64,000 nucleotides of DNA from Nitrososphaeraceae archaeon (GCA_044870765.1 JBIOZG010000017.1:1-64000); one strand, 5' to 3'; positions 14,868-25,119 are shown, counted from the stretch's first letter. Program-made: numbers and translations. Notes: generated by a model not told the origin, from the letters alone.

Positions 14868-15806
14868 TTAAAGAGGAGATTCATTTAATATTAATGCCAA
14901 CAGAGCTGATCTTAAATCCTTGCCGTAAGATGCTTGCTTAAAATAAATTGCATTTGATTTACTGTCTACATCCTGCGATATTTCATCTATTCTAGGCAAG
15001 GGATGCATAATAGAGATATCAGGTTTAAAGCGTTTCAAAATGTTACTATCAATTGTATACACGCCTTTAACTTTTTCATATTCCTGTGGGTCTGAAAATC
15101 TTTCCTTTTGTATTCTTGTCACGTACAATATGTCTGAATTTTGAAAAACTGTGTCATTTAATTCTGTTAATTCTATAATTTTCATTTTATCCTTTAAACC
15201 ATAAATGGACTCTTGTCGAATTTGTAATGTTGGCGGTGAAACTAAGATGATTTCTACATCATAATTAGAAAGTCCGTATAATAAGGAGTAAATTGTTCTT
15301 CCATATTTCAAGTCCCCCAATATACAAATTCTTAATCCATCAATTTTCTTTTTTTCCTTTGTTATTGTATATAAATCCAGCATAGCCTGTGTTGGATGCT
15401 CTTCACTTCCGCTACCCCCATTAATTATGGGATGATCAGAAATTTCTGCTGCAAATTTGCTTGATCCGTCAAGTTGATGACGCAGAATCATGATATCTGA
15501 ATAAAGATCCATGACCCTCACAGTGTCTTGTAAACTCTCTCCCTTTTCTATTGAAGACGATTTCAGGTCTGATATTCCAATAGAACTACCGCCTATCGAT
15601 GCCATTGCAGCCTCAAAACTCATTCTGGTTCTAGTACTTGGTTCATAAAACAGATATCCCATTATCCTGGCTTTTCCTAATTCGTCCTTTTCTTTGGGAT
15701 TAAGCTTCTTCATCTTATCCGTTTTTTCAAATAAATATTCAAGATCCTCTCTTTTAAAATCCTTAATTGAAACAACATCTCGATTGAAGAATCTATTAGT
15801 CTTCAT
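14868..15806 (-). CDS. pyrB: Aspartate carbamoyltransferase catalytic subunit
   Basis: FYEPSTRTRMSF, HPTQAMLD, GDLKYGRT, MHPLPR. Confidence 0.97.
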   Translation of the reverse strand: MKTNRFFNRDVVSIKDFKREDLEYLFEKTDKMKKLNPKEKDELGKARIMGYLFYEPSTRTRMSFEAAMASIGGSSIGISDLKSSSIEKGESLQDTVRVMDLYSDIMILRHQLDGSSKFAAEISDHPIINGGSGSEEHPTQAMLDLYTITKEKKKIDGLRICILGDLKYGRTIYSLLYGLSNYDVEIILVSPPTLQIRQESIYGLKDKMKIIELTELNDTVFQNSDILYVTRIQKERFSDPQEYEKVKGVYTIDSNILKRFKPDISIMHPLPRIDEISQDVDSKSNAIYFKQASYGKDLRSALLALILNESPL

Positions 15807-17785: not shown

Positions 17786-20515
17786 TCATCCCGACATACA
17801 AGAGCTAAATCCACATTCTATGCACATATTGCAACCTTCCGTTATTATCAGCCTTGCATTACAGGACGGACACGTTTCGTACTCCTGATAGTCATTAGAT
17901 GATGCATTCATGTTCATTTTTAGTTTAGATTGAGATACATTTACTGTGGTTTCAGTTGCCTCTATTTCTTCTGTATCTCTAAACACTTTTTCAACTTGGC
18001 TCATAACATAATCTTGCTTAATGTTACTATGAATATGGTCAACCACATGGGCGCTTGGCTTTACAATGAATTTTTTCTCTTTGTCATTTCCGGTTATGTG
18101 TAGCACCTGTTCATGTCTAGAGCCATCTCTGTAGACCGTAACGCCCTTCAATCCTAATTCATGTGACAATAGATAAGCAGCCTTGATATCTTCGACCGTG
18201 ACATCAGACGGCATGTTAATAGTTTTTGCTATCGCGTTGCTAATCCATTTTTGCCAAATTGCTTGTGCCATAAGATGATCCGTCCAATGCACATCAATGG
18301 CTGTTACAAATATTTTCTGTAGCCTTTCTGGGATTTCGGCCAATCCTCTCACAGAACCATAGTTATTTGCAATTTTCGTTAAAATTTCATCATTATACAA
18401 GCCATTTTCTTTGAGCATATTTTCAAATATTCTATTTGTGTAAAAGAATCTTCCTACAGTGACCCGTTTTTCGAAAACTAGTGCAAAAACTGGTTCGACT
18501 CCGTTTGAAGTGTCAGCTATCATAGACAATGTTCCCGTAGGTGCAATTGTAGTAGTCCATGAGTTTCTGATTCCATATTTTTCAATCTTCTCAACTAATG
18601 AATCCCAGTCGTAAGAATGGTATCGTTTTGGAATTTCATAGTATCCTGCCACTGGTATCATTTTTCCTTCAACATAATCAGTCTGGTTGAATAATGGAAA
18701 TGCTCCTCTTGCTTTTGCAATCGCAACGCTTTCTTCCATGCTATAGTAAGAAAGTGCTTCAGCTACTCTGTTCATAAACTCGTATCCTTCTTTCGAATTA
18801 TATGGGATCTCTAAGGTAAATAGTAGATCAGCAATACCCATTATTCCAAGTCCGATTCTCCTTGTTAACTGTGTATTATGTTCAATTTCTTCAACCGGAT
18901 ATTTGTTCATATCTATGACATTATCCAAAAATCTGGTCGAAAGACGTATTGCTTGCTCGTAACGTTGCCAATCAAACTCATACTTTCCATCTATATTACG
19001 CTTTACAAAGTTTGCTAAATTGATGGATCCCAAATTGCATGATTCATATGGGTATAATGATTGCTCTCCACAGGGATTTGTTGCTCTAAGTGGTCCTTCT
19101 TTTACGTTGATACATGGATTATATTTATTGATATTATCAAAGAATATAACACCTGGCTCTGCGCTTTTCCACGCACTGAAAGTAATTAAATCCAAGAGCT
19201 GATGTGAGTCAATTTGCGTGACGGGTTCATTGGTAGTTGGATTCTTTAGTATGTATCTATGATTATTTTCATTAATTATCGATTCCCAGAAATCACTCCA
19301 AATTCCAACGCTTACGTTAAAGTTCTCGAATATGCCTGGCTTGGTTTTGGCTGTCACGAACTTTTCGATATCCGGATGCCATGATTCCATGATTCCCATG
19401 TTTGCTCCCCTTCTTTTTCCGCCCTGTTTTACTACATCAGTAATTGTGTCTATAATTCTCATGAACGAGATCGGTCCTGAAGCAACACCAGAGGTAGATG
19501 CTACTATATCGCCTTCGGGACGAAGTTTTGAGTAATTAATTCCAACTCCTCCTCCAGATTTAAAAATCATCGCTGCGTCAGTGGAAGATTTCATAATCTC
19601 CGTCATGTCGTCTTTCATATCTAATACAAAACATGCTGAAAGCTGACCAAGTTTTGCCCCCGCATTCATAAGAGTTGGAGTGTTTGGTAAAAAGTCTTTT
19701 GTCACCATCAGATTATAATATTCAATTATTCTATCAGAGTACTTTGACAGGTGCCCCTCGGCAATAAGCCGCAAAAGGTTCTTAAAGCTAACTTTCATAC
19801 GTCCACTTTTTGCCAAATTAATGTAATGCCTAATCATTGATTCAAAATGAAATTGGTTAAGATAGTGATTGCCAATTTTTAGTTTCAAATGAAAATCATC
19901 TATTTTTTTGTAATATTCTTCAGCTTCAGTAATATTCTGAACTACTACTTCACTATTAGAGTACAATTCTGAATCATGTAATATATCTGGGATTGTTACG
20001 AGAACTGCGACCCGTTCAAAAAGCAATTTCGGATCTTCTACTATTTCATTATTGTTATCTCTTAACAAGTAGCGTGAAGCAAGCACTCTTAGAGAATTAA
20101 TGTCAAATGACTTATCAACTTCGTCCAAATCCTTCTTATTTAGAATTTTCTTCTTTTCATCTCTAATCTTGCGGCGTTCATGTCTGTATAGAATATATGC
20201 CTTGGCAGTTTCTGAAAGTCCCTCTTCAATCAAGATTGATTCAACCATATCCTGGACATCTTCTACACTTGGAACTCGATTGGTATCAAAAACAGAAAAT
20301 TGTTGATCCATTTTTTGTACAACTTTTTCTGATAATCTTTCAGCAAGCTTGTAATCTGTTTTACCTGCTGCCATTAACGCTTTGTAGATGGCATTAGAAA
20401 TCTTTGAATTATTAAAATCAACCAGCCCTTTGTCCCTCTTCCTAATTTGCGCGATAGCTTTTTTATTTGCGTGCGAAGAATCATCAATTTCGGTAATTTC
20501 CTTTGCCATAACCAT
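17786..20515 (-). CDS. nrdJ: Adenosylcobalamin-dependent (class II) ribonucleotide reductase with N-terminal ATP cone
   Basis: ATP cone (IRKRDK...VEDVQDMVE), PNTPTLMNAG, QLSACFV, TNPCGEQ.L..YESCNLGS, TIAPTGT, KTINMP, VYRDGSR, C-terminal CxxC...CxxCGFSSC. Confidence 0.95.
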   Translation of the reverse strand: MVMAKEITEIDDSSHANKKAIAQIRKRDKGLVDFNNSKISNAIYKALMAAGKTDYKLAERLSEKVVQKMDQQFSVFDTNRVPSVEDVQDMVESILIEEGLSETAKAYILYRHERRKIRDEKKKILNKKDLDEVDKSFDINSLRVLASRYLLRDNNNEIVEDPKLLFERVAVLVTIPDILHDSELYSNSEVVVQNITEAEEYYKKIDDFHLKLKIGNHYLNQFHFESMIRHYINLAKSGRMKVSFKNLLRLIAEGHLSKYSDRIIEYYNLMVTKDFLPNTPTLMNAGAKLGQLSACFVLDMKDDMTEIMKSSTDAAMIFKSGGGVGINYSKLRPEGDIVASTSGVASGPISFMRIIDTITDVVKQGGKRRGANMGIMESWHPDIEKFVTAKTKPGIFENFNVSVGIWSDFWESIINENNHRYILKNPTTNEPVTQIDSHQLLDLITFSAWKSAEPGVIFFDNINKYNPCINVKEGPLRATNPCGEQSLYPYESCNLGSINLANFVKRNIDGKYEFDWQRYEQAIRLSTRFLDNVIDMNKYPVEEIEHNTQLTRRIGLGIMGIADLLFTLEIPYNSKEGYEFMNRVAEALSYYSMEESVAIAKARGAFPLFNQTDYVEGKMIPVAGYYEIPKRYHSYDWDSLVEKIEKYGIRNSWTTTIAPTGTLSMIADTSNGVEPVFALVFEKRVTVGRFFYTNRIFENMLKENGLYNDEILTKIANNYGSVRGLAEIPERLQKIFVTAIDVHWTDHLMAQAIWQKWISNAIAKTINMPSDVTVEDIKAAYLLSHELGLKGVTVYRDGSRHEQVLHITGNDKEKKFIVKPSAHVVDHIHSNIKQDYVMSQVEKVFRDTEEIEATETTVNVSQSKLKMNMNASSNDYQEYETCPSCNARLIITEGCNMCIECGFSSCMSG

Positions 20516-20521
20516 CTATAC

Positions 20522-20563
20522 AGCTAGAGTCTAGCTTAAAAATATTATTTTACAAAAATAATA
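20522..20563. promoter_or_regulatory. Two palindromes upstream of nrdJ
   Basis: AGCTAGA-G-TCTAGCT (20522-20536) and TATTATTTT-ACA-AAAATAATA (20543-20563). Confidence 0.45.
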
Positions 20564-20579
20564 CAATGAAGGTTTAAAC

Positions 20580-22700
20580 TTATTGATTCGGTATTATTAT
20601 ATTGGAAAAATTGGTAGATCCGCAGCTTTTACAAACTCCGGACGACATAGAAATCTTGGTGCCGCACGAGCTACAAATTTTGTTTCTATATATTGGTCTG
20701 AAGAAATTAAAACCGTAAGATTTGTTAATAGACTCTATCAATTCGTTATCTTCCAGATCACTAGTATCAACATTGATAGAAACTCCACCATTCAGTAATC
20801 CGTCTATTGAGTTAGTTGATTCTATTATAGGACCGCTATTTGCAAGTAAATCTCGCCCGTTTATAAGAAGACCCTGTGAATAAGACTTTATCATCATTTT
20901 ATCACCAGCTTGTCGATACATGTTCCCATATTTTTCAGAGTCTAAAGAAGCTAGTCTAGTACTACTGTCATCTGTAATCATAGCAATTCTTATAGAATCA
21001 TCTCCAACTTGTTTCCCTTGATCTGAAGCAACCTCAACAGCCGTATGTAATACCTTTTGAATTATTTCTTCTCCGTCAACTTCATGTCCTAGTATATTAT
21101 AAACCGACTCCCTAACTCCAGTCAGGTTAATTACCAGATTCATCCTGCTTAATTGCATCATGTGAGTAATGTTGGCCATTACAGGAAGCATTTCTCTTCG
21201 AATCATTTCCAGTATAGAGTTCTTTCTTGCCAAAAGAGCTGAAATAGCTGGCTTTATCATCAATGCTAATCTGGCTCTAAAATAGGTCTCATCTTTATTT
21301 GACTGATAAGCTAGTCTTGGCAGATTTATTGCCAAGGACTGCAAGCTTACAATCGAACTAGCTTTCTCGTCAGCCGCATTTTTTACAATCCCCATGTGGC
21401 TTCTGAAGTTCTTGGATGCGGACAGAATTCCACCATTTTTGACGATACTTGGTATCAGATCCGAATTTGTCCCTAGAGACTCGTCCTTACCAACAAGAGA
21501 TAACGCAATAGTTGGGATAGGCGTGTGGTCCAAATATTTCATATAGGCCGCCAAAATAGATCTGGTTATAGAGCTTTCATCAAGATAGATAGGAAAAGTA
21601 ACTACTGGAAAACCCGAAGACGAAAATGATCTTGAAATGGATGATGATATAAATACCCTAGAAAATGCAGCCTCTATTGACTCACTACTCTCCTGAATCC
21701 TCTTTGAAATGCTAGAAACAAAATTATCAAGTATTATCTCCCTTGAAGTTTCTCTACTTAAGACCGAAATTAATACAGGTAGAACCTCTGTAATGTCATC
21801 AAGAGTCCGAATTGGTTTCAATCTTGAAACATTCAAGTATTTTCCTTTAAAGTCTAGACCATTTTCAACGATATTGCGAGTATCGATAAATACGGTGTCA
21901 GGCACCAAGTTCCAAAGCCCGGTGTTTGAAATATTTAGTTCGCCGGCAAGATGCATATCAGTGATATCCTTAGGTAACACGTTGAACAGCAGATTTTCGG
22001 AAAAAACTGCAAGAGATGTTTCTGATAAAATTCCTTCCACTCCATTTTTGCTATATAAAGGATTGTTAAACATTTCAGAGATATCAGAGCCCGGAAGACC
22101 TAGTCTAGCTAGTTTTGATCTGAATTCCTCATAGCCGTGCTCAATTAATATTGAATTAACAGTCTCTCTAATAAGAGAGGAAGTTAGATAGACCGTTTGG
22201 AATTTGTAAACTTTGTTTTCCACTTCTTCAGTAATCTTATGTGCCTGTTCAAGAGGCATATTGGCCTCCCTGACCAATGATTGAGTTATTCTATTTGAAT
22301 TAAATTCCTCGATTGAATGTCTAGAAGTTCGCACGTACATTTTGCCGCTTTCAATGATGGATCTTTCTTCAATTTGTCTTGCCAGACTTAAGACAAGTTT
22401 TCCGAGATTGGTAATCGTATATCTCCTTTCCGCCTTATTTAATGCGACAAGAGACTGCCTCAAGAGCTTCCTTAAATGGTAAGCAAATTTACCTGATTCC
22501 TTTTTAGATTTGAAACCAGCTAACGACTTTAATTCAGAATAAGTTAAAGGTCCTTTTGAATTTAAAATTCGAAGTATATCGATTCTGTTAGGACTCGCCA
22601 TAACAGAGAAGATCATTCTAACTCTTTTTGCTGCTTGTAAAATGCCACTAGGCTTAGTTTCAGTTTGAGTTATTAGATCATGGCTTGCCTCTATCTCCAT
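20580..22700 (-). CDS. ArsR-like wHTH + ATP-cone + degenerate anaerobic RNR (NrdD-like) fusion
   Basis: MASPNRIDILRIL...YHLRKL (HTH); VRTSRHSIEEFNSNRI...IRETV (ATP cone); AINLPRLA and a C-terminal CxxC/CxxC ribbon as in NrdD; no glycyl-radical RxxGY motif. Confidence 0.85.
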   Translation of the reverse strand: MEIEASHDLITQTETKPSGILQAAKRVRMIFSVMASPNRIDILRILNSKGPLTYSELKSLAGFKSKKESGKFAYHLRKLLRQSLVALNKAERRYTITNLGKLVLSLARQIEERSIIESGKMYVRTSRHSIEEFNSNRITQSLVREANMPLEQAHKITEEVENKVYKFQTVYLTSSLIRETVNSILIEHGYEEFRSKLARLGLPGSDISEMFNNPLYSKNGVEGILSETSLAVFSENLLFNVLPKDITDMHLAGELNISNTGLWNLVPDTVFIDTRNIVENGLDFKGKYLNVSRLKPIRTLDDITEVLPVLISVLSRETSREIILDNFVSSISKRIQESSESIEAAFSRVFISSSISRSFSSSGFPVVTFPIYLDESSITRSILAAYMKYLDHTPIPTIALSLVGKDESLGTNSDLIPSIVKNGGILSASKNFRSHMGIVKNAADEKASSIVSLQSLAINLPRLAYQSNKDETYFRARLALMIKPAISALLARKNSILEMIRREMLPVMANITHMMQLSRMNLVINLTGVRESVYNILGHEVDGEEIIQKVLHTAVEVASDQGKQVGDDSIRIAMITDDSSTRLASLDSEKYGNMYRQAGDKMMIKSYSQGLLINGRDLLANSGPIIESTNSIDGLLNGGVSINVDTSDLEDNELIESINKSYGFNFFRPIYRNKICSSCGTKISMSSGVCKSCGSTNFSNIIIPNQ

Positions 22701-22710
22701 CTCACCCGAT

Positions 22711-22726
22711 ATTATCTTGAGATAAT
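22711..22726. promoter_or_regulatory. Palindrome just upstream of the HTH-NrdD-like gene
   Basis: ATTATCT-TG-AGATAAT, between the start codon (22700) and a TTTAAA box. Confidence 0.5.
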
Positions 22727-22815
22727 TTAAAATTGGGTCGTAAATAGTTATTGACTAACAGTACAAAACAATTAACCCACTAAACAATATACCAACTTAT
22801 GTTAGAAAATCAAAT

Positions 22816-23418
22816 TTAGATCATAACTTCATTTTCCTCTAATAGGGATTCTAATTCATTCCTATTTTTCAACACATTAATTGTAGCAGGTATGTCGGGT
22901 AGCTTTTGTCTAGTCTCTTCTTCAACACTCTCTTCAACTTCTCCTAAAATCCTTAGCGCCTCCTCGTCTACGGGCATAGATATTTTAAGCTCGGGATTGA
23001 CATTGAAATTCAAAATTTCAGATGAAGCGTTTGTAACATCGTTTAACACCTCATGCGCAGTGGGGATCACCATTGAAATATCTCTCTCGATATCTTTTAT
23101 CAAATCTATAGTTGGATTTATCGTATCCATGATAATTGCAAATTCACCTATTATTGTAGATCGGAGAGCTACGACCTCAAGGGTCATTACCATATTTTTT
23201 GTAGTGTGTTGGATTCTATGTATATTTACAAGCTCATTAGCTAATGCCTTGGCGCGAACATTATTACCAACTTTAATGTTTTGTACAATTTGTTTTCTAA
23301 AGTGAGTATCCATAATGTCAAATTTCTTTGAGAGCTTGTTTAATTTTGTAATCTGATTACTAATAACTTGAGCAGCACTAGACAGATCATTCTGAAGCTG
23401 TGTATTATGCTGCATCAA
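22816..23418 (-). CDS. cdvB: ESCRT-III/Snf7-like CdvB paralogue
   Basis: Helical core RAKALANELVNI...TLEVVALR...DEEALRILGE...KLPDIP typical of archaeal CdvB paralogues. Confidence 0.75.
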   Translation of the reverse strand: MMQHNTQLQNDLSSAAQVISNQITKLNKLSKKFDIMDTHFRKQIVQNIKVGNNVRAKALANELVNIHRIQHTTKNMVMTLEVVALRSTIIGEFAIIMDTINPTIDLIKDIERDISMVIPTAHEVLNDVTNASSEILNFNVNPELKISMPVDEEALRILGEVEESVEEETRQKLPDIPATINVLKNRNELESLLEENEVMI

Positions 23419-23559: not shown

Positions 23560-23946
23560 TTAGTCTGCTTGTTTTTCTAATGTAAGGCCATGTTTGGCAT
23601 CATATCCTTTTACGCTGACCGTTGAGCCTATCGGCAAATCAGATGGTATTTTAATTCCTGGCAGAAAGCCTGAAGCTGAAAATGGAGCATCCTTCAGCTT
23701 GAAGACTACCCAGGCATATGAGTTGACATCCTCAAAACCCTCGGGAGCTACTGACTGAATCGTATGAGTCACTACTGTGCCAATGCCCGGAAATTCAACA
23801 AATTCAAAATCACTTTTGGAGCACCCACTGCAGTAATACATTGTCTCAAGCATAACTTTACCACAGTTCTTGCATTTATTGGCGAGAATATTTCCATTCT
23901 TTGCTGTCTCAATGAATCTCTCATGTGTACTGGAATTTTTATCCAT
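23560..23946 (-). CDS. DUF35 Zn-ribbon/OB-fold protein (thiolase partner)
   Basis: CKNCG...CSGC, GTVVTHT; downstream of thiolase. Confidence 0.9.
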   Translation of the reverse strand: MDKNSSTHERFIETAKNGNILANKCKNCGKVMLETMYYCSGCSKSDFEFVEFPGIGTVVTHTIQSVAPEGFEDVNSYAWVVFKLKDAPFSASGFLPGIKIPSDLPIGSTVSVKGYDAKHGLTLEKQAD

Positions 23947-23961
23947 TCTATTTCACCAAAA

Positions 23962-25119
23962 TTACACTTTTTGAAAGATATGAACTGCTGCACTTGCTCC
24001 AGTAGCACCAAAGTTATGGGTCAAGGCTATCTCAGCATTTTCTACAGTTCTTTCTCCAGCTGCTCCTGTGAATTGTTCGAAAACTTCGACAACTTGTCCG
24101 ACGCCAGTCGCGCCAATTGGATGACCTTTGGATTTTAGTCCCCCTGACGGATTAATTGGGATCTCACCGTTACGTCTAGTTATTCCTTCCTTTGCAGCAA
24201 TGCCACCAGTACCCTTTTTAAAAAATCCCAAATCTTCAATATCAATAATTTCTGCAATGGTAAAGCAATCATGAACCTCTGCAAAATCAATGTCTTTAGG
24301 AGTCACTCCTGCCATCTTGTATGCTTGGTTTGCAGCAATTAGCGTACTTGGTATTGTCGTGATATCCTCCCTCGATTGTACTGCAGCAGGCGAACCACCT
24401 CTTCCTGAACCAATTACTTTTACGTAATTGTTACCATTCTTTTTTGCAAAGTCTTCACTGCACAAGATGACAGCGGAGGCACCATCAGAAAATGGACAGC
24501 AATCGTATACCTTTAGGGGTGATGCTACAACTGGCGAGTTCAAAACATCATCTACTGTGATTCTTTTTCTAATGTGTGCCTTTGGATTTAGCAATCCATT
24601 TTCATGATTTTTAACTGCGACATGTGCCAAGTCCGCTTCTGTCGCTTTGTATTTCGTTAGGTAAGCTCGGGCAATAGACGCAAACAAACCCGGGAAGGAA
24701 GCACCATTTCCCCCTTCATAAAAAAAGTCCGAACAATATGAAAAGAGTGTGGTACTAAGAGCAGTTCCAGTATGAGTTACCTTTTCTACACCAACGGCCA
24801 ACACACAATCGTAAAAGCCGGCAGCGACGTTTGCGTAGGCCTCTCTAAACATCACAGACCCTGAACCGCAAGCAGATTCAATTGTTAGCCCTGGGATGTG
24901 AGGAATTCCAAGGTTGCTCATCAATACAGGCGCCATATGTACTTGTTTGTCCGCAACTCCAAACACATTAGAGATATAGCCTGCCTGGATATCTTTTGGT
25001 GTAATTCCAGCTGAATCAATCGCGCCTTTTGCCGCATCTAGTCCCAACTCAATGACGCTTTGACTTAGTTTACCATATTTCGTACTGCCAGCCCCAAGAA
25101 CGCATACACTATTTACCAT
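23962..25119 (-). CDS. Acetyl-CoA acetyltransferase (archaeal thiolase)
   Basis: ESACGSG, CCPFSDGA, AEVHDCF, NPSGGLKSKGHPIGATG. Confidence 0.93.
   Translation of the reverse strand: MVNSVCVLGAGSTKYGKLSQSVIELGLDAAKGAIDSAGITPKDIQAGYISNVFGVADKQVHMAPVLMSNLGIPHIPGLTIESACGSGSVMFREAYANVAAGFYDCVLAVGVEKVTHTGTALSTTLFSYCSDFFYEGGNGASFPGLFASIARAYLTKYKATEADLAHVAVKNHENGLLNPKAHIRKRITVDDVLNSPVVASPLKVYDCCPFSDGASAVILCSEDFAKKNGNNYVKVIGSGRGGSPAAVQSREDITTIPSTLIAANQAYKMAGVTPKDIDFAEVHDCFTIAEIIDIEDLGFFKKGTGGIAAKEGITRRNGEIPINPSGGLKSKGHPIGATGVGQVVEVFEQFTGAAGERTVENAEIALTHNFGATGASAAVHIFQKV

Follow-up and report, generated by a model that had tools for sequence, protein, structure and literature searches.

A probable NrdD-like pseudo-enzyme with winged helix-turn-helix and ATP-cone domains, a candidate regulator of ribonucleotide reductase genes in Nitrososphaeria and Bathyarchaeia

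We analysed a stretch of 64,000 nucleotides from a Nitrososphaeraceae archaeon (GCA_044870765.1 JBIOZG010000017.1:1-64000), hereafter the window, in which the gene for a protein of 706 amino acids (aa), P0001, lies directly upstream of the ribonucleotide reductase (RNR) gene nrdJ on the same strand. An earlier note, made from the sequence alone, had read P0001 as a fusion of an ArsR-like winged helix-turn-helix (wHTH), an ATP-cone and a body resembling NrdD, the class III RNR. It took the class III catalytic elements to be gone and saw in P0001 a pseudo-enzyme repurposed as a nucleotide-sensing transcription factor; as checks it suggested alignment to known NrdDs, a survey of synteny with nrdJ and of the absence of nrdG and nrdR, and structure prediction. 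The open reading frame (ORF) coordinates and a match to TIGR02504 agree with its description of a 64-bp gap followed by a co-oriented, B12-dependent nrdJ, and the three-part architecture is borne out by Pfam domains and by the NrdD fold obtained in structure prediction. The features of the locus are collected in Table 1. Published work is cited by its PMC identifier.

Table 1 Features of the P0001-nrdJ locus and its surroundings, in window coordinates.
Feature	Position	Strand	Basis
P0001 gene: wHTH, ATP-cone and (very probably) dead NrdD-like body, 706 aa	20580..22700	(-)	ORF, translation, Pfam, NCBIfam, AlphaFold2, Foldseek
P0001 winged HTH, ArsR-like / DUF7347, aa 30-104	22389..22613	(-)	PF24038, PF12840
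P0001 divergent ATP-cone, aa 121-193	22122..22340	(-)	PF03477, alignment to NrdD cones
P0001 NrdD-like barrel without catalytic residues, aa 205-672	20685..22088	(-)	alignments, fold match
P0001 C-terminal C4 zinc ribbon (C676, C679, C690, C693)	20583..20684	(-)	Pfam, alignment
nrdJ (P0002), class II B12-dependent RNR, 909 aa, with its own N-terminal ATP-cone	17786..20515	(-)	TIGR02504, PF02867
Intergenic 64 bp with nrdJ 5' region	20516..20579	(-)	AT-rich TATA-like stretch, candidate palindrome
Own 5' region of the P0001 gene	22701..22815	(-)	palindrome, GTCAA-N6-TTTAC copy, TATA-like element
pyrB-like aspartate carbamoyltransferase gene, 2 kb beyond nrdJ	14868..15806	(-)	PF02729, PF00185

Against Pfam, the wHTH of P0001 scores 40.3 bits with DUF7347 (cut-off 27.6) and 32.4 bits with HTH_20 (cut-off 27). 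The NCBIfam model HTH_metalloreg gives 23.7 bits (cut-off 55), and the best matches of aa 26-120 among PDB sequences (MarR, SmtB and ArsR, E 0.76-0.95) are not significant. The ATP-cone is recognised by PF03477 at 47.5 bits (cut-off 25.8), over positions 1-75 of the 88 in the profile. PF13597 (NRDD) reaches 60.3 bits (cut-off 26.2) over aa 444-697, which corresponds to profile positions 270-531 of 562 only. The nrdJ product scores 774.3 bits with TIGR02504 (cut-off 400) and 502 bits with PF02867. In the host assembly (2.0 Mb, 96.65% complete), nrdJ is the only RNR catalytic gene found and the single PF02867 match, while the P0001 gene is the only match to PF13597. The genome holds just two ATP-cones, one in each of these neighbours.

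To locate the catalytic positions, we aligned P0001 and its relatives with E. coli NrdD (NC_000913) and four archaeal NrdDs that score above the equivalog cut-off. Residues 250-273 of P0001 read HLAGELNISNTGLWNLVPDTVFID. The HxHD motif, which in NrdD holds the substrate triphosphate (PMC11226230), corresponds to N256-I-S258-N259, and the first active-site cysteine (E. coli C175) is replaced by T269. The finger loop reads FRSHMGIVK, with HMGIV at aa 435-439; depending on the alignment, a glycine or an isoleucine occupies the column of the thiyl cysteine (E. coli C384). The protein ends in ...CKSCGSTNFSNIIIPNQ, the chain stopping 13 residues past the zinc ribbon, and the RxxGY glycyl-radical tail (E. 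coli G681) is absent. P0001 contains four cysteines in total (676, 679, 690 and 693), all of them within the zinc ribbon; each is at least 85% conserved in a family alignment of 78 sequences (A1, composed of P0001 and 77 of 150 listed representatives). NLPR is retained at positions 459-462. With the NrdD equivalog model TIGR02487, P0001 scores 56.9 bits, the cut-off being 326.35.

The same losses run through the family. We tallied the elements in 80 members (43 of at most 725 aa and 37 longer) and in the five real NrdDs. The first active-site cysteine is found in 0/80 family members and 5/5 NrdDs, the finger-loop cysteine in 2/80 and 5/5, and the second histidine of HxHD in 1/80 and 5/5; the asparagine of NLPR is present in 80/80 and 5/5. 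The aspartate of HxHD is kept by 13 of the 80. The column of the radical glycine is empty in 30 of the 43 short forms; 10 of the 37 long forms carry a glycine there.

The window contains no nrdG, as the earlier note had stated, and no NrdG model exceeds its cut-off anywhere in the genome: TIGR02495 reaches 50.6 bits at best (cut-off 131.15) and TIGR02491 31.7 bits (cut-off 126.1), these scores coming from generic radical S-adenosylmethionine protein matches on other contigs. Likewise, TIGR00244, the model for NrdR, has zero matches across this 96.65% complete genome, so that neither nrdG nor nrdR reaches cut-off. An archaeal amoA is found in the genome at 395 bits; ammonia oxidisers of the host's family are aerobes. 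In source records, close homologues of P0001 bear the name 'anaerobic ribonucleoside-triphosphate reductase [Nitrososphaeraceae archaeon]'. The suspicion that such proteins are labelled as an anaerobic RNR in an aerobe is thus upheld by the names themselves and by amoA. Translation and alignment also confirm the motifs that had been picked out by eye (the NISN region, HMGIV and the truncated tail): both cysteines, HxHD and the glycyl tail are all lost. With these losses, and with no activase above cut-off in the genome, P0001 is almost certainly a pseudo-enzyme and mis-annotated.

The body of the protein is nevertheless predicted to be intact as a fold. An AlphaFold2 model of P0001, built on the 78 family sequences, has a mean predicted local distance difference test (pLDDT) value of 90.3 and a predicted template-modelling (pTM) score of 0.85. 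Its top Foldseek matches in the PDB are all class III RNRs, over 580-720 aligned columns: S. thermophilus 9d3x_A (E 4.6e-18), T. maritima 4coj_B (7.2e-17), P. copri 8p2s and T4 1h79 (2e-11). Class I R1 subunits reach only ~1e-6. As the NrdD matches span the model, the whole body from cone to zinc ribbon has the NrdD fold, including the half that is missed by sequence profiles. Structure prediction, one of the suggested checks, thus gives the full NrdD fold.

We also predicted the oligomeric state. Residues 205-704 gave a homodimer score of 0.82, the best of three controls scoring 0.00; of the proteins solved as one-chain pairs, 20 of 30 attain this mark, compared with 1 of 23 that were solved as single chains. 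With our own alignment as input, agreement between runs extends to at least 76% of contacts, and the partner pLDDT is no lower than 83. NrdD dimers have already been solved, so that the pass may reflect likeness to those. According to the model, P0001 most likely forms an NrdD-like homodimer. Two HTH domains, which palindromic operators require, would be available in such a dimer.

P0001 belongs to a widespread family. As a query it finds a match in 184 of 201 sampled genomes of the class Nitrososphaeria and in 159 of the 161 high-quality ones. Relatives occur in every genome of two large ammonia-oxidiser families (14/14 and 114/114); in families f7 and f12 some of the matches are weak and possibly other proteins. 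The sample includes one unpublished genome, G132, which contributes one locus (L033) to the counts. An exhaustive HMMER search of 1.84 billion representatives returned 894 matches at E ≤1e-3, 156 of them at ≤1e-30. Two groups can be told apart. Members of the short group (~630-720 aa) end right after the zinc ribbon, like P0001. Those of the long group (~740-800 aa) carry a relic of the glycyl tail (for example GRSSAxYxPLxxW, compared with SRVVGYLRPVxQW in NrdD), mostly with Ala, Ser or Thr at the position of the glycine, and belong to Bathyarchaeia according to their source names. A scan of one genome per species confirmed at least 586 relatives out of 600 pattern matches. Among the best 80, the title contains Bathyarchaeota, Bathyarchaeia or Bathyarchaeum in 78 cases; the other two are titled 'uncultured archaeon' and 'Krumholzibacteriaceae bacterium'. 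The expectation that similar fusions are common in the phylum is borne out in the high-quality Nitrososphaeria genomes, and a longer sister group of the family occurs in Bathyarchaeia. Among phages, a tblastn search gave a single weak match, to the NrdD of a methanogen virus (25% identity, E 2e-5).

Some relatives depart from this pattern. About 30 representatives of 565-668 aa (P0231-P0249, P0259-P0265 and P0272) match P0001 over the HTH, the cone and the early body, and their C-termini lack the zinc ribbon. They may form a third, shorter architecture of the family; these ~30 rows, whose match is confined to roughly aa 26-290, were left out of A1 together with fragments. In the ESM Atlas, P0001 aa 1-205 retrieves clusters of 200-305-aa proteins made of DUF7347, HTH_20 and an ATP-cone, from Nitrososphaerota and Bathyarchaeota. 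These are either fragments of the family or stand-alone proteins, the latter of which would be closer NrdR analogues. The Candidatus Krumholzibacteriaceae record (L108), filed under a bacterial metagenome-assembled genome, holds a long-form gene that shares 55% identity with the Bathyarchaeia query and, as in archaeal loci, has pyrB as its convergent neighbour; this record is probably a mis-binned archaeal contig.

Conservation is distributed unevenly along the protein. Between P0001 and P0124, identity amounts to 98% in the wHTH, 75% in the cone and 37-42% in the barrel. The wHTH is 98% identical to those of both P0123 and P0124, the barrel 37-52%, and cone identity across families is 75-87%. 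Among 42 short-form relatives, mean identities are 61% for the wHTH, 58% for the cone and 27-28% for the barrel. In A1, 63 positions are conserved at 85% or more; 41 of them fall in aa 39-206, that is in the HTH, cone and linker. Sequences of the short and the long groups alike hardly vary in the putative recognition helix GKFAYHLR, and G70, F72, Y74, H75 and L76 of the wHTH are all at least 85% conserved. Judging by these identities, constraint is inverted relative to a working RNR: the putative DNA-binding and sensor-like modules are under the strongest selection.

The cone itself is divergent. It starts with V-R-T-S instead of the canonical V-x-K-R, and this variant is nearly invariant across the family. 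The last helix, of E-Y-R-H type, is retained (Y193, R194, R199), and R124, S126, E131, R178, Y193, R194 and R199 are nearly invariant in both groups. In the cone of P. copri NrdD, the residues Lys7, Arg8, Arg87, Arg91 and Tyr83 surround the nucleotides, with Lys7 and Arg8 contacting phosphates (PMC11226230). From the residues retained, nucleotide binding by the P0001 cone is plausible; its ligand may differ.

The gene neighbourhood ties the family to RNR. In 29 of the 30 best Nitrososphaeria loci, the window itself included, nrdJ lies directly downstream on the same strand; the remaining locus ends at a contig edge. We picked 20 further loci to spread over the families of Nitrososphaeria, and 14 of them adjoin nrdJ (seven co-oriented, six convergent and one divergent). 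The synteny with nrdJ, whose survey had been suggested, is thus found in both sets. In Bathyarchaeia, the gene directly downstream and co-oriented is an intact nrdD in 15 of the 80 best loci, or in 14 of the 48 that have at least 3 kb of downstream sequence. All 15 of these NrdDs retain HxHD, the first cysteine and RxxGY; one of them, scanned against Pfam, matches NRDD with 643 bits. The P0001 family hence accompanies the catalytic RNR gene, of whichever class, as well as pyrB (see below). That its partner has changed from nrdD to nrdJ favours a regulatory link over an enzymatic partnership. In one genome of the same genus (G196, locus L011), ~380 nucleotides (nt) separate the regulator gene from nrdJ, compared with 64 bp in the window (~320 extra), and the regulator-gene match reported by the genome search contains a single in-frame TAG.

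We then looked for candidate operators. A perfect 7-1-7 palindrome, AGCTAGAcTCTAGCT, is found at 20522-20536, past the AT-rich TATA-like stretch and 6 nt before the ATG of nrdJ. A 7-2-7 palindrome, ATTATCTcaAGATAAT, precedes the ATG of the P0001 gene itself at 22711-22726. A same-genus relative keeps the arms of the first palindrome, but its flanks are nearly identical too, which makes the comparison uninformative; the own 5' region of the P0001 gene is identical in that relative. In Nitrosopumilaceae, the 5' region of nrdJ contains a conserved block, GGTGTCAACAAAATTGA, which precedes a TATA-like element and lies ~90 nt from the start. A 9-mer enumeration covered k-mers with at least three G/C in 22 representative loci of our choice. 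Generalised to GTCAA-N4-7-TTGAC (at most one mismatch), the Nitrosopumilaceae block is found in the 250 nt preceding nrdJ in 10 of 22 genera and 5 of 7 families, compared with 6% of random 250-nt windows of those loci; the motif was defined after part of the data had been seen, and the relatives are not independent. In family f6, two sites of this type are perfect palindromes with 7-bp arms. The window holds a one-mismatch copy, GTCAA-N6-TTTAC, at 22740-22755, which overlaps the TATA-like TATTTAC of the P0001 gene itself. On sequence grounds, the palindromes and the GTCAA motif are leads, candidate operators only. In two Bathyarchaeum loci (L086 and L088), the region ahead of the long-form gene has two tandem sites of GTCAA-N6-TTGAC type, ~45 nt apart, at distances of ~155 and ~200 nt from the gene; each pair includes one perfect site, TTgGTCAAACTTTCTTGACTAA.

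Four RNA libraries from soil or rhizosphere, which stem from four studies, contain contigs covering the two genes with 93-100% identity. These contigs are consistent with expression of both, with DNA carry-over possible. The 64-bp gap is bridged by none of the listed contigs, and cover there is low or nil in two runs; the contigs carry no strand, level or transcript ends and so do not decide between separate and joint transcription. One of them (run X1) has an in-frame 3-base ATG insertion behind 21482, likely a strain variant that explains the relatives of 707 aa, one residue longer than P0001.

Directly upstream of the P0001 gene, on the same strand, a 200-aa ORF (22816-23418) shows a weak match to Snf7/ESCRT-III (PF03357, 20.9 bits, cut-off 27.3). 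Its position is kept in other genera of the window's family (L011-L015, L017, L056 and L057), and it may encode a CdvB-like division protein beside genes of deoxyribonucleoside triphosphate (dNTP) supply. Farther upstream, at 23560-25119 (-), lie genes for a thiolase (385 aa) and a small ChsH2/DUF35-type protein with an oligonucleotide/oligosaccharide-binding (OB) fold and a zinc ribbon (128 aa). They are syntenic with the P0001 family in both large ammonia-oxidiser families.

We now propose a role for P0001. It would be a dead paralogue of the class III RNR NrdD that acquired an N-terminal wHTH and kept a modified ATP-cone. Its NrdD-like homodimer would place two HTH domains on DNA and regulate the adjacent RNR gene in response to nucleotides: nrdJ in this archaeon, nrdD in anaerobic Bathyarchaeia. 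P0001 may in addition regulate itself and act on other nucleotide-synthesis genes such as pyrB. Architecture, constraint and synteny make it reasonably likely, and somewhat better than an even call, that P0001 is a nucleotide-responsive transcription regulator of the RNR gene; its DNA binding, its ligand, its target promoters and the sign of regulation are all what we infer from them. By analogy, P0001 is probably an NrdR-like functional counterpart. A more ambitious version can be drawn. In it, the relic active and specificity sites would bind (deoxy)ribonucleoside triphosphates and the cone would read ATP/dATP, so that the dimer would turn the size and balance of the dNTP pool into transcription of RNR and pyrimidine genes. 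The family would then be an ancient archaeal master regulator (Nitrososphaeria and Bathyarchaeia), born of an nrdD duplication and outliving the replacement of nrdD by nrdJ in aerobes. We offer this version tentatively and consider it unlikely as a whole.

Several observations weigh against P0001 as a regulator of the RNR gene. No RNR gene lies within 6 kb in six of the 20 Nitrososphaeria loci that were picked for diversity. The commoner neighbour in Bathyarchaeia is pyrB, which follows directly in convergent orientation in 25 of the 48 loci having 3 kb or more downstream (nine of the 48 have neither nrdD nor pyrB), and the adjacency of nrdD there could be a relic of the tandem duplication that created the gene. 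In the cone, the Lys-Arg pair is replaced by T125-S126, following the nearly invariant R124. A large, well-folded dimeric barrel exceeds the needs of a DNA-binding switch, making another role possible. The two palindromes of the window remain candidates as operators, and neither has a counterpart (arms of at least 6) in the five other genera of the family that were compared; in addition, a palindrome with 7-bp arms would arise by chance in 64 AT-rich bases with a probability of ~0.06 (a rough estimate), which is only weakly unlikely. None of the five scanned genera of the window's family has the GTCAA motif upstream of nrdJ, and the same holds for the window and its same-genus relative. Bathyarchaeia show no clear enrichment of the motif either, with 2/15 regions upstream of nrdD and 5/72 upstream of the long-form gene itself, compared with 2.5% of random 300-nt windows. 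By these palindrome and motif comparisons, no operator is established in the host genome.

Part of this evidence would suit a broader regulator of nucleotide metabolism or the cell cycle, with a regulon made of pyrB, pyrimidine, replication or division genes and the RNR gene as one target or none. The excess of convergent pyrB (25/48) over nrdD (14/48) in Bathyarchaeia points that way, as do the six diverse loci beside no RNR gene and several Nitrososphaeria loci in which pyrB flanks the pair (6/20 in the diverse set; those named are L056, L057, L059, L061 and L070). The Snf7/ESCRT-III-like ORF upstream would fit as well, being syntenic in the window's family, albeit weak and below cut-off at 20.9 bits. 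However, nrdJ is the tightest and most constant neighbour in ammonia oxidisers (29/30), pyrB is absent from the Nitrosopumilaceae loci examined, and the gene has no promoter in common with a pyrB that is convergent to it. No regulon motif is established. We regard such a broader role as possible, though with a rather low probability.

P0001 could alternatively be a protein partner that modulates or sequesters NrdJ (or NrdD) according to nucleotides, the HTH serving as a DNA tether or in some other role. The ATP-cones of RNRs act through nucleotide-dependent oligomerisation (PMC11226230), both P0001 and the nrdJ product carry a cone, the barrel is kept folded and predicted dimeric, and the genes are adjacent in most genomes. 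Such a partner would have had to switch from NrdD to NrdJ, which are unrelated in sequence. Moreover, the wHTH is the most constrained part (98% across families), which speaks for a conserved nucleic-acid target or an equally constrained one. We find this explanation improbable.

More improbable again is a DNA binder without nucleotide sensing, whose cone and barrel would be structural relics for dimerisation and whose signal, if any, would be another. The replaced Lys-Arg pair, the Pfam match to 75 of the 88 cone positions and the lost HxHD speak in its favour; yet the cone is the second most conserved part of the protein (75-87% across families), and its nearly invariant charged and aromatic residues are hard to explain for a spacer. 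Finally, that P0001 is still an enzyme, be it a divergent RNR or another nucleotide-transforming enzyme of non-radical or unknown chemistry, is very hard to believe: the full barrel, the zinc ribbon and the NrdD motifs AHxxG, NLPR, RLAxxD and GG are retained and databases call it an anaerobic RNR, but there is no cysteine outside the zinc ribbon, no glycyl tail, no HxHD and no activase above cut-off, the barrel evolves fast compared with the N-terminal domains, and the host has the amoA of ammonia oxidisers with an aerobic physiology.

As a regulator of RNR transcription, P0001 is best compared with NrdR, the RNR-specific repressor of bacteria. Both combine a DNA-binding module with an ATP-cone, both have a genetic tie to RNR genes, and the logic proposed for P0001, a nucleotide-dependent switch of RNR transcription, is that of NrdR. 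The modules differ: NrdR binds DNA through an N-terminal zinc ribbon, whereas P0001 has a wHTH, and its own zinc ribbon is C-terminal and derived from NrdD. P0001 further has an extra, dead RNR barrel of 500 residues, and its cone lacks the Lys-Arg pair. P0001 falls outside the NrdR family; the resemblance between the two is functional and hypothetical. With NrdD (T4, E. coli, T. maritima, P. copri, S. thermophilus), it shares by homology the barrel, the position of the cone, the zinc ribbon, several signature motifs such as NLPR and the predicted dimer; it differs in the absence of both active-site cysteines, HxHD and the glycyl tail, in having no NrdG above cut-off and in the added wHTH. A design precedent exists in NrtR, a Nudix-related regulator of NAD metabolism (PMC2330246). 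It too joins an enzyme-like effector domain to a winged-HTH-like domain, has been annotated as an enzyme and regulates the pathway to which its enzyme fold belongs. NrtR is bacterial, has a Nudix fold and another domain order, and is not homologous to P0001.

The fusion of an HTH, an ATP-cone and an NrdD-like body is not described in the full-text literature searched, subscription journals and bioRxiv supplements being outside its reach. Nor is it mentioned in the available text of an analysis of RNR insertions and extensions (PMC9669993) or of RNRdb (PMC2795772). The P0001 family probably represents an architecture new to the literature, in which a putative DNA-binding regulator with an ATP-cone is linked to RNR genes. 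No mobile domain other than the ATP-cone is known to control an enzyme's expression as well as its activity (PMC9110341).

Archaea seldom have NrdR (PMC9110341), the RNRdb table counting 6 archaeal against 1268 bacterial cases (PMC2795772), and because of this rarity the control of RNR expression in archaea is largely unknown. The label 'anaerobic ribonucleoside-triphosphate reductase' can meanwhile mislead metabolic reconstructions into assigning to these aerobes an anaerobic capacity that they do not have. Altogether, the P0001 family offers a concrete, testable candidate for an RNR regulator in the ecologically dominant ammonia oxidisers and in Bathyarchaeia. If the proposal is true, the family would fill the archaeal NrdR gap, and the scaffold of an enzyme would have been recycled as the sensor of its own pathway's regulator.

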